Sequence record: PZ386951.1
Length of the DNA stretch: 64,000 nucleotides
Source: a phage
Strand: one strand, 5' to 3'
Numbering within the stretch: position 1 is the stretch's first letter; each line of letters begins with the position of its first letter. The notes below the pieces were generated by a model. The model ran no database searches, was not told the DNA's origin, and was given only the letters and a program-made list of their open reading frames with translations. This document shows positions 16,185-24,231 of this stretch, piece by piece. A program made the translations under genes and the position numbers.

Positions 16185-16409
16185 TTATACAACTCTCATA
16201 TGCATATCAATGCCCATATCTTTAGAATAAAAATATTCATCAAGATATCCGGCAAATTTTCCTTTAATATAAAGGACATCTTCACCGCATGGGTGATCGG
16301 CCAGGATACGAATATCCTGACGCTTAAGATTATGCTTTTTCATTAAGAATTGAATTTCCGTTTCAAATTCTTCTTCATAATTAAAAGCATCATTAATATT
16401 ATATCTCAT
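16185..16409 (-). CDS. hypothetical protein (uvsY.-1 position)
   Basis: 74 aa with ATG start; abuts the uvsY stop. Confidence 0.6.
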   Translation of the reverse strand: MRYNINDAFNYEEEFETEIQFLMKKHNLKRQDIRILADHPCGEDVLYIKGKFAGYLDEYFYSKDMGIDMHMRVV

Positions 16410-16822
16410 TATTTTCCAGCCTCAAATGCCCGCATGTCTTGAATATGCTTAATAGCAAATCCTCGTGATTTGATAGCATCAAGAGCTCCACTGCAGAAAT
16501 CTAATAAAATCCCCCAATACTGCAGCGAGGTGTCAACCTTTAAAACATCCTTATCAGCTGATAGAACTGTCTTCATTTCTGATTTCTCGTAACGATCCAT
16601 ACTAAATTCATCACCATCTCCTCGTCCCGAGTAGTAGTCTAATTTAGCTTTAAGAGCAACTTTTTTCTGTGCATCAATTCTAAGCATTTCCTTTTTAATA
16701 CTTGAATGCTTATTAAGCCATTTACTATATAACATCACATTATTAGCTGCTTCATACTGTAATTTAGTCGAATCTATAAACACATCTTTCTTCAATTCTT
16801 CTTGAAGATCTTCTAATTTCAT
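16409..16822 (-). CDS. uvsY: UvsY recombination mediator
   Basis: 137 aa; MKLEDLQEELKKDVFIDSTKLQYEAANNVM matches T4 UvsY. Confidence 0.95.
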   Translation of the reverse strand: MKLEDLQEELKKDVFIDSTKLQYEAANNVMLYSKWLNKHSSIKKEMLRIDAQKKVALKAKLDYYSGRGDGDEFSMDRYEKSEMKTVLSADKDVLKVDTSLQYWGILLDFCSGALDAIKSRGFAIKHIQDMRAFEAGK

Positions 16823-16888
16823 GTTGTTCTCTATTCAATTGTTATTGGATGGACTTAGATTCATTATACCACGTTTATACGTGAAGCA

Positions 16889-17287
16889 TTATACTCTATT
16901 ACTGGAAGCCAGTTGCAGTTTTATCTGCTCAATATCATCAGGATTATCGATGACCGAAAAGCGTATTTCTACTATTAGAGTATAATCATCATAAACTGGT
17001 ATCACATTAACTGCTAATTTATCAATACGTGGCTCATAATTTCTTACTGCGCTTTCGATGTTACGCTCAACTGTGTCAGCAGTAAGAGGAGTCATATTTT
17101 CAAAAAGCTGGTCTGATAAATCACATCCAAATTCAGGGTCAAACGGTCTTGAACCTTTTCTTGTTGTAATAATTCCTAAAAGACTATTTTTAATTGACCT
17201 TAATCCAAGAGATCTGGAAACGTCTTTGTCCCAGTCCATTTTCATTTCTGGGTCGATGTCAGAATAAAGCTTATTAATATTTGCCAT
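16889..17287 (-). CDS. 25: baseplate wedge protein gp25
   Basis: 132 aa, gp25/GPW family; T4 position. Confidence 0.93.
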   Translation of the reverse strand: MANINKLYSDIDPEMKMDWDKDVSRSLGLRSIKNSLLGIITTRKGSRPFDPEFGCDLSDQLFENMTPLTADTVERNIESAVRNYEPRIDKLAVNVIPVYDDYTLIVEIRFSVIDNPDDIEQIKLQLASSNRV

Positions 17288-17913
17288 TATAGTAACTCAA
17301 AGAACTCTTTGAGGCCTCTTATTACATGAGCATGGGTTTTTCCACACTCTGGACACTTAATTGGAACAGCCAAATAAACGGTAGGCTTTAAAAGCATATC
17401 TTTTATAGCTACAATATCTGACTCTGTGATGATAGAATATAAATCTTCTAGTTCCTTTTCATTTAAGTCTTCAACTGGAATGCTTTCCCCGTTAGCATGA
17501 ATCGTTTCTATGCATGATACTATCATGTGGGCTATATTTTTATCATCAAAAATTTTAGGGTATCGGAATTTAATTTTAATGTCACCCAGTGTATACCAGA
17601 GGTCTTCTGGTGCATCTATTTGTGTGTGTAATAGATTTATATGGGTTGGTATTTCAGTTCCACAGGTGCACTTCCAGGAGTTTTCGTGATTAACTTCACC
17701 GAGAGAATGTGCCCATAAATGAATCAATAATAGTTCTGATTCTTGGCGGTTTAAATCTTTTGCATTTGTGCAGTCTTTGATTAGCTTTTTAACAATTACT
17801 TCTACAGAACCATTATTTTTGGCAGTAATAAGTTCTAGATATTCTTTAAGAGTAAATGCGCGACAGTTGATTATTTTAGAACCAACTCTCACATCAAATT
17901 TGTATTCATACAT
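17287..17913 (-). CDS. 26: baseplate hub protein gp26
   Basis: 208 aa, same length and position as T4 gp26. Confidence 0.88.
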
Positions 17914-17934
17914 ATTTAGCTCCTTTATTTATCA

Positions 17935-17946
17935 TATTTATAAATA
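17935..17946. promoter_or_regulatory. overlapping divergent late promoters (TATTTATAAATA)
   Basis: TATAAATA on the plus strand at 17939-17946 for gene 51 and on the minus strand at 17935-17942 for genes 26-25. Confidence 0.55.
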
Positions 17947-17963
17947 GAATAAAAGGAGCATCT

Positions 17964-18716
17964 ATGGCAAACATTATTCGTTGTAAATTACCAGATGGTG
18001 TTCATCGTTTTAAACCATTTACGGTAGAAGATTATCGAGATTTTTTGTTAGTTCGAAACGATATAGAACATCGGTCACCACAAGAACAAAAAGAAGTAAT
18101 TGCTGATTTAATTGCTGATTATTTTGGAGACTATCCAAAGACTTGGCAACCATTTATATTTTTGCAGGTATTTGTAGGGTCAATAGGTAAAACTAAAGTA
18201 CCAGTCACATTTGTATGTCCAAAATGTAAAAAAGAAAAGACAGTTCCATTTGAAATATACCAAAAAGAATTAAAGGAGCCTGTTTTTGATGTAGCTAATG
18301 TTAAAATTAAATTAAAGTTTCCTTCTGATTTTTATGAAAATAAAGCAAAGATGATTACTGAAAATATTCATTCTGTTCAAGTAGATGAAATTTGGTATGA
18401 TTGGAAGGAAATTAGTGAATCAAGCCAAATAGAACTTGTTGATGCCATCGAGATAGAAACATTAGAAAAAATTCTCGATGCAATGAATCCTATTAATTTA
18501 ACATTGCACATGTCGTGTTGTGATAAGTACATTAAAAAATACACTGATATAGTAGATGTGTTTAAGCTATTAGTTAACCCAGATGAAATATTTACTTTTT
18601 ATCAAATCAATCACACGCTTGTAAAAAGTAATTATAGCTTAAATTCAATAATGAAAATGATTCCTGCCGAGCGCGGATTCGTATTAAAACTGATTGAGAA
18701 GGATAAACATCAATGA
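17964..18716 (+). CDS. 51: baseplate hub assembly catalyst gp51
   Basis: 250 aa; T4 gp51 position and size. Confidence 0.88.
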
Positions 18717-19885
18717 GTATGTTACAACGTCCTGGATATCCAAATCTCAGCGTTAAATTATTTGAGAGTTATGACGCTTGGAGTAATAATAGATTTGTTG
18801 AATTAGCTGCTACTATTACCACATTAACTATGCGTGACTCTCTTTATGGTCGAAATGAAGGAATGCTACAATTTTATGATTCTAAAAACATTCATACAAA
18901 AATGGATGGAAATGAAATAATTCAGATTTCTGTAGCTAATGCAAACGATATTAATAATGTTAAAACACGAATTTATGGATGCAAGCATTTTTCCGTGTCA
19001 GTAGATTCAAAAGGCGATAACATCATTGCTATTGAATTAGGAACTATTCATTCTATAGAAAATCTTAAATTTGGTAGACCATTTTTCCCTGATGCCGGTG
19101 AATCTATAAAGGAAATGCTTGGCGTAATTTATCAAGATCGTACATTATTAACTCCAGCGATAAATGCTATTAATGCTTATGTTCCTGATATTCCATGGAC
19201 TAGCACATTTGAAAACTATTTGTCATATGTAAGAGAAGTTGCTCTAGCGGTAGGAAGCGATAAGTTCGTATTTGTATGGCAAGACATCATGGGAGTTAAC
19301 ATGATGGACTATGATATGATGATAAATCAAGAACCATATCCAATGATTGTAGGTGAGCCAACTTTAATAGGTCAATTCGTCCAAGAATTGAAATATCCAT
19401 TAGCATATGATTTTGTTTGGTTGACTAAATCAAACCCGCATAAACGTGATCCAATGAAAAATGCTACTATCTATGCTCATTCATTTTTAGATTCTTCATT
19501 ACCAATGATTACTACAGGAAAGGGTGAAAACTCTATTGTAGTGTCAAGGTCAGGTGCTTATTCTGAAATGACTTATAGAAATGGATATGAAGAAGCTATT
19601 CGTCTTCAGACTATGGCGCAGTATGATGGTTACGCTAAATGTTCTACTGTCGGTAATTTTAACTTGACTCCTGGCGTTAAAATTATTTTTAATGATAGTA
19701 AAAACCAATTTAAAACAGAATTTTACGTTGATGAAGTTATTCACGAATTATCAAATAATAATTCCGTAACTCATCTTTATATGTTCACTAATGCAACGAA
19801 ACTGGAAACAATAGACCCAGTTAAGGTTAAAAATGAATTTAAATCTGATACTACCACTGAAGAAAGTAGTTCTTCCAATAAGTAA
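18713..19885 (+). CDS. 27: baseplate hub protein gp27
   Basis: 390 aa; start overlaps the gene 51 stop. Confidence 0.9.
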
Positions 19886-20366
19886 TAAAGAAGTTTCTAT
19901 TCCTAAAATGGGTCTTAAACATTATAACATTTTAAAAGATGTTAAAGGTCCTGATGAAAATTTAAAACTTCTTATTGATTCTATTTGTCCGAATTTATCA
20001 CCGGCAGAAGTTGATTTCGTTTCTATTCATTTGCTAGAATTTAATGGAAAGATTAAATCTCGTAAAGAAATAGATGGTTATACTTATGATATTAATGACG
20101 TTTATGTATGTCAAAGATTGGAATTTCAATACCAAGGAAATACATTTTATTTTAGACCTCCTGGAAAATTTGAACAATTTTTAACTGTAAGCGATATGTT
20201 ATCTAAATGCTTGCTTAAGGTCAATGATGAAGTTAAAGAAATTAATTTTCTTGAGATGCCAGCATTCGTTTTAAAATGGGCAAATGATATTTTTACAACT
20301 TTAGCAATTCCTGGCCCTAATGGTCCAATAACCGGAATTGGCAATATTATTGGATTATTTGAATGA
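19833..20366 (+). CDS. 28: baseplate hub distal subunit gp28
   Basis: 177 aa, same length as T4 gp28; overlaps the gene 27 3-prime end. Confidence 0.85.
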
Positions 20367-22135
20367 AAAAGCCACAAGAAATGCAAACGATGCGTAGAAA
20401 AGTTATTTCAGATAATAAACCAACACAGGAAGCGGCTAAATCCGCTTCTAATACTTTATCTGGTCTTAATGACATTTCTACAAAATTAGATGATGCTCAA
20501 GCTGCCTCTGAATTAATAGCTCAGACTGTTGAAGAAAAATCAAATGAAATAGTTGGAGCAATTGATAACGTTGAAAGCGCAGTAAGTGATACTACTGCCG
20601 GTTCTGAGTTAATTGCTGAAACTGTTGAAATTGGAAACAATATTAATAAAGAAATCGGTGAATCGCTCGGAAGCAAATTAGATAAATTAACAAGTTTACT
20701 GGAACAAAAAATTCAGACAGCTGGAATTCAGCAAACTGGAACGAGTTTAGCAGTAGTCGAAAATGCTATTCCTGTTAAAGTCGTCGAGGATGATACAGCT
20801 GAATCTGTGGGTCCTTTATTACCGGCTCCTGAAGCAGTTAATAATGATCCTGATGCTGATTTTTTCCCTACTCCTCAGCCAATTGAACCAAAACAAGAGT
20901 CTCCAGAAGAGAAGCAAAAAAGAGACGCATTTAACTTAAAAATATCTAATGCATTAGATAAATTAACAAAGACAGTTGATTTCGGATTTAAGAAATCTAT
21001 TTCAATTACTGATAAAATATCTAGCATGCTATTTAAGTATACCGTCAGTGCTGCTATTGAAGCTGCTAAAATGGTTGCATTGATAATGGCTGTTGTTATT
21101 GGAATAGACCTGCTGATGGTTCATTTTAAATACTGGTCAGATAAATTTTCAAAAGCCTGGGATTTATTTAGCACTGATTTTAAAACTTTCTCAAGCGAAA
21201 CAGGAACTTGGGGCCCTTTATTACAAAGCATCTTTGAATCTATTGATGAAATTAAAAAGTTCTGGGAAGCCGGAGATTGGGGCGGATTAACAGTAGCTAT
21301 TGTTGAAGGGCTTGGAAGTGTTCTTTATAATTTAGGAGAGCTTATTCAATTAGGTATGGCTAAATTATCTGCAGCAATTCTTCGAGCCATTCCTGGCATG
21401 AAGGATACTGCTGATGAAGTAGAAGGAAGAGCATTAGAAAATTTCCAAAATTCTACTGGAGCATCTCTTAATAAAGAAGACCAAGAAAAAGTAGCAAATT
21501 ATCAAGATAAACGAATGAATGATGATCTTGGCCCAATAGCAAAAGGATTAGACAAAATTGCGAACTGGAAAACTCGTGCATCTAACTGGATTCGTGGTGT
21601 AGATAATAAAGAAGCATTGACTACTGACGAAGAACGTGCAGCAGAAGAAGAAAAATTAAAACAACTTTCACCGGAAGAAAGAAAAAATGCTTTAATGAAA
21701 GCTAATGAAGCTCGTGCTGCGATGATTCGTTTTGAAAAATACGCTGATTCAGCTGATATGGGCAAAGACTCGACAGTTAAATCAATTGAAGCTGCTCATG
21801 AAGACCTTAAAAAACGAATGAATGATCCGGATTTAAATAATTCACCAGCAGTTAAAAAAGAACTTGCTTCTAGATTTGCTAAAATTGATGCCACTTATCA
21901 AGAGCTCAAGAAAAATCAGCCTGAAGCAAAACCTGAAACTTCTGCTAAATCGCCAGAAGCAAAACAAGTTCAGGTAATAGAAAAGAACAAAGCACAGCAA
22001 GCTCCTGTTCAACAAGCATCTCCTTCGATCAATAATACTAATAATGTTATTAAGAAAAATACTGTCGTTCATAATATGACACCTGTCACAAGCACAACTG
22101 CTCCTGGTGTATTTGGTGCGACGGGAGTTAATTAA
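20363..22135 (+). CDS. 29: baseplate hub / tail length determinator gp29
   Basis: 590 aa, same length as T4 gp29; extended helical, Ala/Glu/Lys-rich. Confidence 0.9.
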   Translation: MKKPQEMQTMRRKVISDNKPTQEAAKSASNTLSGLNDISTKLDDAQAASELIAQTVEEKSNEIVGAIDNVESAVSDTTAGSELIAETVEIGNNINKEIGESLGSKLDKLTSLLEQKIQTAGIQQTGTSLAVVENAIPVKVVEDDTAESVGPLLPAPEAVNNDPDADFFPTPQPIEPKQESPEEKQKRDAFNLKISNALDKLTKTVDFGFKKSISITDKISSMLFKYTVSAAIEAAKMVALIMAVVIGIDLLMVHFKYWSDKFSKAWDLFSTDFKTFSSETGTWGPLLQSIFESIDEIKKFWEAGDWGGLTVAIVEGLGSVLYNLGELIQLGMAKLSAAILRAIPGMKDTADEVEGRALENFQNSTGASLNKEDQEKVANYQDKRMNDDLGPIAKGLDKIANWKTRASNWIRGVDNKEALTTDEERAAEEEKLKQLSPEERKNALMKANEARAAMIRFEKYADSADMGKDSTVKSIEAAHEDLKKRMNDPDLNNSPAVKKELASRFAKIDATYQELKKNQPEAKPETSAKSPEAKQVQVIEKNKAQQAPVQQASPSINNTNNVIKKNTVVHNMTPVTSTTAPGVFGATGVN

Positions 22136-22143
22136 GGAATAAT

Positions 22144-23238
22144 ATGGCAATTGTTAAAGAAATAACTGCTGATTTAATTAAAAAGTCCGGTGAAACAATT
22201 TCAGCCGGACAGAGTACTAAATCAGAAGTAGGAACTAAAACATACACAGCCCAGTTTCCAACTGGGCGTGCTAGTGGTAATGACACTACAGGGGACTTCC
22301 AGGTAACAGATCTATATAAGAATGGATTATTATTTACTGCATACAATATGTCATCTAGGGATTCTGGAAGTCTTAGAACGATGAGATCTAACTACTCTTC
22401 TTCATCTTCGAGTATTTTACGTACAGCCAGAAACACTATCAGTAATACAGTATCAAAACTATCAAATGGACTAATATCAGATAATAATTCAGGAACAATA
22501 AGTAAAGTTCCTGTTGCAAATATTCTTTTACCTAGATCTAAATCTGACGTCGATACGTCATCACATAGATTTAATGATGTTCAAGATAGTCTTATTACAA
22601 AAGGCGGAGGAACTGCTACGGGCGTATTAAGTAATATGGCTTCAACTGCAGTATTTGGCGCGCTTGAAAGTATAACACAAGGAATAATGGCTGATAATAA
22701 TGAACAGATCTATACAACAGCTAGAAGTATGTATGGCGGTGCTGAAAATAGAACAAAAGTGTTCACCTGGGATTTGACTCCACGCTCAACAGAAGATTTA
22801 ATGGCTATTATTAATATCTATCAGTATTTTAACTATTTTTCTTACGGTGAAACTGGTAAATCTCAATATGCTGCTGAAATAAAAGGATATTTAGATGAGT
22901 GGTATCGTTCTACATTTATTGAACCATTAACGCCAGAAGACGCGATTAAAAACAAGACGTTATTTGAAAAAATGACATCGAGTTTAACGAACGTTCTTGT
23001 AGTTTCAAACCCGACAATTTGGATGGTGAAAAACTTTGGTGCAACTTCTAAATTTGATGGAAAGACTGAAGTATTCGGTCCATGCCAAATACAGAGTATT
23101 AGATTTGATAAAACACCAAATGGTAACTTTAATGGATTAGCTATTGCTCCTAACCTTCCAAGTTCTTTTACACTCGAGATTACTATGAGAGAGATTATTA
23201 CGTTAAACCGTGCTTCTTTATATACGGGGACTTTCTAA
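22144..23238 (+). CDS. 48: baseplate tail-tube cap gp48
   Basis: 364 aa, same length and position as T4 gp48. Confidence 0.9.
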   Translation: MAIVKEITADLIKKSGETISAGQSTKSEVGTKTYTAQFPTGRASGNDTTGDFQVTDLYKNGLLFTAYNMSSRDSGSLRTMRSNYSSSSSSILRTARNTISNTVSKLSNGLISDNNSGTISKVPVANILLPRSKSDVDTSSHRFNDVQDSLITKGGGTATGVLSNMASTAVFGALESITQGIMADNNEQIYTTARSMYGGAENRTKVFTWDLTPRSTEDLMAIINIYQYFNYFSYGETGKSQYAAEIKGYLDEWYRSTFIEPLTPEDAIKNKTLFEKMTSSLTNVLVVSNPTIWMVKNFGATSKFDGKTEVFGPCQIQSIRFDKTPNGNFNGLAIAPNLPSSFTLEITMREIITLNRASLYTGTF

Positions 23239-24203
23239 TGTATTCTTTAGAGGAATTTAATAATCAAGCAATAAACGCAGACTTCCAACGTAATAATATG
23301 TTCAGCTGTGTTTTTGCTACAACTCCATCAACTAAAAGCTCTTCGTTGATAAGCTCAATTAGTAACTTTGCTTATAATAACTTGGGTCTAAATTCAGATT
23401 GGTTAGGATTAACTCAAGGTGATATTAATCAGGGAATTACCACGCTAATTACAGCTGGCACACAAAAACTAATAAGAAAATCGGGAGTCAGTAAATATCT
23501 TATTGGCGCTATGAGTCAGCGTACTGTCCAGAGTTTATTAGGCTCATTTACAGTTGGTACATATTTAATTGACTTCTTTAACATGGCATATAACTCATCT
23601 GGATTGATGATATATTCTGTAAAAATGCCAGAAAATAGATTATCTTATGAAACTGACTGGAACTATAACTCTCCTAATATTCGTATAACTGGAAGAGAAT
23701 TAGACCCTTTGGTTATTTCATTCAGAATGGATTCAGAAGCTTGTAACTATCGTGCAATGCAAGACTGGGTTAACGCTGTTCAAGACCCAGTAACTGGATT
23801 GCGTGCTTTGCCACAAGATGTCGAGGCAGATATTCAGGTTAATCTTCATTCTCGTAATGGATTGCCTCATACTGCGGTGATGTTCACCGGATGCATTCCA
23901 GTGTCAGTGAGCGCTCCTGAGTTATCATATGATGGAGATAACCAAATAACTACATTTGATGTTACTTTTGCGTATAGAGTGATGCAGGCTGGAGCAGTTG
24001 ATAGACAAGCTGCGCTTGAATGGCTTGAATCTGCTGCTATAAATGGTATTCAAAGCGTTCTCGGAAATAGTGGAGGTGTTACTGGACTATCTAATTCGCT
24101 TTCACGACTCAGTAGATTAGGGGGAACTGCTGGAAGCATTTCAAACATTAATACCATGACAGGAATTGTTAATTCGCAAAGTAAAATATTAGGAGCAATA
24201 TAA
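23238..24203 (+). CDS. 54: baseplate tail-tube initiator gp54
   Basis: 321 aa; T4 gp54 position; start overlaps the gene 48 stop. Confidence 0.9.
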   Translation: MYSLEEFNNQAINADFQRNNMFSCVFATTPSTKSSSLISSISNFAYNNLGLNSDWLGLTQGDINQGITTLITAGTQKLIRKSGVSKYLIGAMSQRTVQSLLGSFTVGTYLIDFFNMAYNSSGLMIYSVKMPENRLSYETDWNYNSPNIRITGRELDPLVISFRMDSEACNYRAMQDWVNAVQDPVTGLRALPQDVEADIQVNLHSRNGLPHTAVMFTGCIPVSVSAPELSYDGDNQITTFDVTFAYRVMQAGAVDRQAALEWLESAAINGIQSVLGNSGGVTGLSNSLSRLSRLGGTAGSISNINTMTGIVNSQSKILGAI

Positions 24204-24207
24204 TAAT

Positions 24208-24225
24208 GGGGACCTTTCGGTCCCC
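24208..24225. terminator. GC-rich hairpin GGGGACC-TTTCG-GTCCCC with T tract
   Basis: inverted repeat then ATATTTTTATTT; between convergent gene 54 and the alt-region genes. Confidence 0.6.
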
Positions 24226-24231
24226 ATATTT

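Follow-up and report, generated by a model that had tools for sequence, protein, structure and literature searches.

In bacteriophage T4, overlapping divergent promoters of the base plate gene cluster were reportedly mapped by Scarlato, Storlazzi, Gargano and Cascino in a 1989 paper in Virology. This paper is said to carry the title 'Bacteriophage T4 late gene expression: overlapping promoters direct divergent transcription of the base plate gene cluster'. A full-text literature search for mapped transcripts of the gene 26/gene 51 junction (referred to as the 26/51 junction) or for overlapping late promoters, with the 1989 paper lying outside the searchable text, yielded no description of the promoters of this site, and no promoter features are annotated in the T4 records NC_000866 and AF158101. 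According to the title of another study (Gruidl et al., Virology 1991, PMID 1871975), the transcription units to which genes 25, 26 and uvsY belong overlap. Paired late promoters have been called at this junction in two relatives of T4, and both calls are computational predictions, as are those of the present analysis. In the genome of Yersinia phage fPS-90 (GenBank LR215723), both 8-mers of the site are annotated as predicted late promoters on opposite strands with a 4-nt offset; in its sister record, fPS-2, only the minus-strand late promoter is annotated. For RB69, Nolan et al. (2006) predicted late promoters Pl:118620(+) and Pl:118672(-), a pair that falls in the gap between genes 26 and 51, which start at 118622 and 118670, respectively; this gap contains TATTTATAAATA, the 12-bp sequence analysed here.

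The general properties of T4 late promoters are well described. According to a review, such a promoter consists only of an 8-bp box without a -35 element and is accompanied by an A/T-rich segment that becomes melted. Published structures and biochemistry show that, once the DNA has melted, gp55 reads A-12, A-9 and A-8 of the non-template strand, that the transcription bubble extends from -12 to +2, that gp33 contacts the upstream duplex DNA and that the gp45 clamp encircles the DNA at the upstream end. Activation of late promoters by the sliding clamp is polar by the published rule. Not all of the 50 T4 late promoters listed in the review by Geiduschek and Kassavetis have been shown to be active in vivo.

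The DNA analysed here is a stretch of 64,000 nucleotides from a phage (record PZ386951.1), which we call the window. It belongs to Tequatrovirus, and many genomes of this genus show 98-99% identity to it in the region of interest, the best match being Shigella phage ESh25. A 50-bp gap (17914-17963) separates a minus-strand ORF (17287-17913) from a plus-strand ORF (17964-18716). The intergenic sequence is identical, base for base, to that of T4 and is flanked by the same genes, with no difference at the site; therefore, the site is the T4 gene 26/gene 51 junction. Gene identities were assigned by PHROG profile searches, in which the plus-strand genes matched hub/assembly catalyst (gene 51), hub (gene 27), distal hub (gene 28), hub/tail length (gene 29), tube cap (gene 48) and tube (gene 54) families. 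The ORFs and the PHROG matches together bear out the gene order given in the initial annotation, in which the site was placed between 26-25-uvsY on the minus strand and 51-27-28-29-48-54 on the plus strand. The coordinates of the genes and of the other features discussed below are listed in Table 1.

Table 1. Features at and around the 26/51 junction, with positions numbered along the window
Feature	Position	Strand	Remarks
P51 box, TATAAATA, for gene 51	17939-17946	+	Exact match; placed at -13 to -6
P26 box, TATAAATA, for gene 26	17935-17942	-	Exact match; placed at -13 to -6
P51 start (predicted), A	17952	+	6 nt past the box by the -13 to -6 rule; 12-nt leader
P26 start (predicted), A on the minus strand	17929	-	By the -13 to -6 rule; 16-nt leader
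Gene 51 Shine-Dalgarno region, AAAGGAGC	17952-17959	+	Sequence; arm of inverted repeat I8
Gene 26 Shine-Dalgarno region, AAAGGAGC	17919-17926	-	Sequence; arm of inverted repeat I8
Imperfect 48-bp palindrome, 24-nt arms, 71% complementary	17917-17964		Almost the whole intergenic region; repeat I2
Gene 26, baseplate hub, gp51 paralog	17287-17913	-	phrog_150, E 7e-71; BLASTP versus gp51, E 1e-5
Gene 25, baseplate wedge subunit	16889-17287	-	phrog_261, E 2e-64; 1-nt overlap with the end of gene 26
uvsY	16409-16822	-	phrog_231; downstream of gene 25, same strand
Genes 51-27-28-29-48-54	17964-24203	+	Gaps of -4, -53, -4, 8 and -1 nt
G+C-rich hairpin, 9-bp stem, T runs on both strands	24206-24227		3 nt after the gene 54 stop

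The sequence TATTTATAAATA occupies positions 17935-17946 and is a perfect 12-bp palindrome, the axis of which lies between 17940 and 17941. A motif scan of the window identified exact matches to the 8-bp T4 late-promoter consensus, TATAAATA, on both strands within the 12-mer, as had been pointed out in the initial annotation together with the 4-nt offset. The two boxes, designated P51 and P26 after the genes that they face, have 4 bp in common, namely the central TATA, and this is the largest overlap that leaves both 8-mers exact. The distance from the box to the ATG codon is 17 nt for gene 51 and 21 nt for gene 26. In the same scan, P51 was the sole exact-consensus late box upstream of or within the 51-54 cluster, and P26 was the sole one upstream of 26-25. 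A search for sigma-70-like promoters in the gap (17914-17963) found none. The pentamers downstream of the boxes are GAATA on the plus strand and TGATA on the minus strand, each of which contains four A/T positions out of five. P26 and P51 thus combine the box, the spacing, the A/T-rich downstream segment, the virion genes and the orthologous conservation expected of T4-type late promoters, and their two cores lie on opposite strands, have bases in common and point apart.

The predicted transcription start positions are also well preserved: in the junction alignment described below, the A at 17952 and the plus-strand T at 17929 (-12 from the axis) are each 90% conserved. Both predicted leaders would begin at or just ahead of AAAGGAGC. 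In the T4 genome (NC_000866), the two predicted starts correspond to approximately 116467 (+) and 116444 (-). A further box with one mismatch, GATAAATA, is located on the minus strand at 17926-17933, 12 nt from the gene 26 ATG, and is also present in T4. It was considered as a second P26 and rejected as the main promoter, its predicted start lying inside the Shine-Dalgarno sequence of gene 26; its absence from the other genera examined also disfavours such a role.

To judge these matches against chance, we compared their numbers with those expected in the window. The exact 12-mer was observed once, versus an expectation of 0.044 under a first-order Markov model. The 8-mer TATAAATA occurs at 19 sites, an approximately twofold excess over shuffled sequences (8.8 +/- 2.7), and none of the 100 shuffles reached 19. 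By a crude gene call, approximately 96% of the window is coding, and yet 14 of the 19 sites are intergenic or located at gene edges. Apart from the two boxes of the palindrome, there are 11 gene-proximal sites, each on the strand of the gene that it precedes and 14-34 nt from its start, a range that includes the 17 and 21 nt of P51 and P26. The 19 sites also provide a ready map of candidate late promoters for the window as a whole. When one mismatch was allowed, the 12-mer was found three times in the window versus 1.3 expected, which is not significant on its own; we therefore argue for function from position and conservation, not from this count.

Conservation was examined in junctions from 14 named genera and in 59 IMG/VR loci recovered by gp51 alignment. 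The exact 12-mer is present in 11 of the named genera, namely Tequatro-, Mosig-, Karam-, Jiaoda-, Gapriver-, Moon-, Dhaka-, Winkler-, Lazarus-, Muldoon- and Bragavirus, and in genera with the exact 12-mer the amino acid sequence identity of gp51 to that of the window is as low as 35-72%. It was also found in 44 of the 59 IMG/VR loci. When the divergent 26/51 junctions were pooled, 56 of 66 loci carried the exact 12-mer, corresponding to 31 distinct 72-nt sequences, although these and the following counts are not phylogenetically independent. In these 31 sequences, the 12-mer is flanked on each side by four positions that contain only 0.1-0.7 bits of information and are thus nearly random.

This information profile is pre-selected on the 12-mer, and conservation was therefore re-tested using the plus-strand box alone as the anchor. 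The exact plus-strand box was found in 35 of the 39 distinct divergent 26/51 junction sequences. In 31 of these 35, the box is preceded by TATT (17935-17938), the tetramer that completes the minus-strand box, and the remaining four have ATTT. The frequency of TATT at this position expected from the local composition is 0.017, and at the other TATAAATA sites in the window the tetramer was found upstream in 0 of 17 cases. The randomized flanks indicate that enough time has passed for the lineages to diverge, and the bases that are needed only by the leftward promoter are as constrained as the rightward box. Because TATT has been kept together with the plus-strand box, while the flanks are near-random and the tetramer is not seen at the other sites, these data argue that both promoters are under selection. 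Across many T4-like genera, few conserved non-coding elements at the 26/51 locus have limits as sharp as those of the 12-bp palindrome.

The presence of the palindromic feature is confirmed, and its reading as paired late promoters is supported by the correct spacing, the uniqueness of each box for its gene cluster, the joint conservation of the boxes and the same paired call made by others in fPS-90 and RB69. On these grounds, which are those of sequence comparison, we consider it likely, with a probability of roughly 0.88, that the 12-mer represents two bona fide gp55-dependent late promoters arranged back to back, with their first four bases (TATA) shared. The initial annotation had proposed a single site that could load the polymerase in either orientation. 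Of this proposal, the two orientations are retained, both boxes being exact and jointly conserved, whereas the idea of an orientation-neutral site is not: a more fitting description of the element is that of two promoters with 4 bp in common.

Junctions that deviate from the standard form are informative in this respect, and in the first two cases given here both putative promoters persist in a different arrangement. Five loci from Aeromonas phages (Tulane- and Biquartavirus types; L015, L016, L060, L062 and L065) contain a 10-bp palindrome, TATTTAAATA, which yields TTTAAATA on both strands with an offset of 2. Nolan et al. (2006) called no late promoter at the junction of phage 44RR, which carries this variant TTTAAATA. 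In a single IMG/VR locus (L058; IMGVR_UViG_2974770551_000001, positions ~940-1000), both exact boxes are present in a crossed, face-to-face layout, TATAAATAATACTAGTATTTATA. Such a layout would yield antisense leaders that overlap at their 5' ends, rather than back-to-back starts. In the co-directional Pseudotevenvirus and Slopekvirus clusters, no late box was found upstream of gene 51, and the gap contains a terminator hairpin.

A further case is phage Aeh1, for which the reported late consensus is CTAAATA. At the divergent junction of its gene 4 with a tube-cap gene resembling gene 48, we found a 14-bp palindrome, TATTTAGCTAAATA, in which TATTTAG is directly followed by CTAAATA (L081, positions 900-925, corresponding to NC_005260 ~122799-122824). 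Nolan et al. (2006) predicted an overlapping plus/minus pair at this junction, and their list contains further overlapping pairs in RB69 (80613/80684), RB49 (144977/145030) and RB43 (32617/32662 and 165866/165930). Across these cases, the palindrome tracks the presence of a divergent late junction and the late-promoter specificity of each phage. This behaviour is expected if gp55 is the reader of the site and is unexpected for an unrelated dimeric operator.

The last point bears directly on one alternative, in which the palindrome is conserved chiefly because a dimeric protein, for instance DsbA or some unknown regulator, binds there and controls both operons, and the resemblance to the late boxes is secondary. 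Perfect dyad symmetry is indeed typical of such operators, and low-affinity DsbA sites overlapping two late promoters are noted in a review, which does not specify the promoters. However, the invariant block coincides exactly with the span of the two 8-mers, and the Aeh1 palindrome, at another divergent junction, is composed of Aeh1's own late consensus, as gp55 would require. In addition, dsbA is non-essential, and the affinity of its product is micromolar according to the review. We therefore regard an operator as the main function of the palindrome as very unlikely, but a DNA-binding protein might still add a regulatory layer besides the promoters.

Even less probable is the alternative that P51 is the only functional promoter, with the minus-strand match being a by-product of A/T-richness and 26-25 being transcribed late from elsewhere. 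Because late promoters have no required upstream element, an A/T-rich tetramer upstream of P51 would not be impossible, and boxes with one mismatch are present inside gene 26. Moreover, the Krischvirus-type junctions (RB49-like; L013, positions ~865-883, and L061, L063 and L064) retain only the plus-strand box in exact form, and their minus strand contains only ACTAAATA, located ~5 bp to the left (TATTTAG TATTT TATAAATA). This ACTAAATA may itself function as a late promoter, in a variant form akin to CTAAATA. What speaks against a by-product is that TATT is maintained in 31 of the 35 junctions amid near-random adjacent bases and is absent from the other sites, that 26-25 has no alternative exact box upstream, that the minus-strand box is retained even in the crossed layout of L058, and that the overlapping transcription units named in the title of Gruidl et al. 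include genes 25 and 26.

The paired promoters are embedded in a larger symmetrical structure. The two ribosome-binding sites are mutually complementary and thereby generate the extended palindrome that spans almost the whole intergenic region (Table 1). RNAs reading through the junction are predicted to fold with energies of -14.7 kcal/mol (z -2.5) on one strand and -13.0 kcal/mol (z -3.3) on the other relative to shuffled sequences, and the predicted hairpin buries the Shine-Dalgarno sequence and the AUG codon on either strand. In contrast, RNAs beginning at the predicted late starts are unstructured in the folding analysis. Late mRNAs would therefore begin inside the hairpin and have free ribosome-binding sites, whereas those of longer, read-through RNAs would be buried. 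[quoted passage not shown] The least probable alternative of all is that selection acts mainly on this hairpin, with the 12-mer as its A/U-rich apex: the folding of both read-through RNAs and the reported sequestration agree with it, but the 12-mer is invariant while stem positions vary, an apex needs no fixed sequence, and complementarity between Shine-Dalgarno and anti-Shine-Dalgarno sequences follows automatically whenever two ribosome-binding sites are divergent. For the same reason, namely that an apex would need no invariant sequence, the hairpin is better viewed as a complement to the promoter function than as a rival to it.

If the 12-mer works as a pair of late promoters, P51 would fire rightward into 51-27-28-29-48-54, and P26 would drive leftward transcription of 26-25 that may continue into uvsY. 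We infer that the six plus-strand genes constitute one late operon transcribed from P51. The G+C-rich hairpin that follows gene 54 resembles a bidirectional terminator and is likely the end of this operon. On the other side, the 66-nt gap before uvsY (16823-16888, minus strand) contains a middle-promoter-like sequence (TGCTTCA...16 nt...TATAAT), and the homologous site in the fPS-90 record is annotated as a predicted middle promoter.

The geometry of the site places constraints on how the two promoters could be used. The bubbles would span 17940-17953 for P51 and 17928-17941 for P26 and would thus overlap at the axis. The upstream duplex of each promoter, where gp33 and gp45 are expected to act, would be the melted and transcribed DNA of the other, so only one open complex could form at a time. 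Occupancy of P26 and P51 is therefore probably mutually exclusive, as deduced from the site geometry and the published structures. The initial annotation had suggested 'coupled or competing' late expression of the two hub gene sets. Competition on a single DNA molecule agrees with this geometry and with the structures, whereas nothing in our analysis supports positive coupling.

Given the polarity of activation by the clamp, P26 and P51 should respond to clamps of opposite orientations, which speaks for different clamp populations serving the two directions rather than for joint loading, and we infer from these in vitro rules that the choice between the promoters follows the orientation of the clamp. 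The combination of the site geometry with the polarity rule leads to a more speculative proposal, that the palindrome acts as a clamp-orientation toggle, such that the P26:P51 firing ratio reports the ratio of clamp orientations and hence the recent direction of the replication fork. We consider this unlikely, but if it were true, the toggle would tie the relative dosage of gp26 and gp51 in hub assembly to the geometry of replication. The palindrome is located ~1.1 kb from the place homologous to the T4-annotated oriF/ori(uvsY), and a review places oriF where the transcribed strand switches. The site offers a clean natural substrate on which to study the choice between two probably mutually exclusive directions by a late transcription machinery that is polar and activated by the clamp.

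The two genes that flank the site are themselves related. gp26 and gp51 are distant paralogs, both of which match phrog_150 and show 19% identity to each other (BLASTP E 1e-5). Where the N-terminal codons of gp26 and gp51 align, there is a 25-nt inverted repeat (17834-17858 and 18016-18040), the arms of which are 76% complementary. In Pseudotevenvirus (RB16 and HK6) and Slopekvirus (KP15), represented by loci L018, L019 and L020, the order 54-51-26-25 is found on one strand, and the divergent T4 layout differs from this layout by an inversion. We considered that the 26/51 paralogs may have arisen by an inverted duplication, with the palindrome marking its axis. However, a tandem duplication followed by a later inversion is equally possible, because 51-26-25 are co-directional in Pseudotevenvirus and Slopekvirus.

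Compared with the known systems, P26 and P51 resemble the canonical gp55/gp33/gp45-dependent late promoter of T4, such as that of gene 23, in having the box at -13 to -6 and no -35 element, and also in the A/T richness of the melted segment and in the late structural gene that follows. They differ from this unidirectional promoter in that two boxes in opposite orientation have 4 bp in common. The paired late promoters at the 26/51 junction are already known in T4 and its relatives, and since T4 has the identical site and the pair has already been annotated or predicted in relatives, our analysis adds nothing new to T4 biology as such. What it adds is a quantified comparative picture and the finding that the same back-to-back design recurs in Aeh1 with that phage's own consensus. 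The Aeh1 site shares with the 26/51 site the back-to-back boxes, the divergent virion genes, the short gap and the symmetric ribosome-binding sites, but it serves another gene pair, and its CTAAATA boxes abut, with no bases in common.
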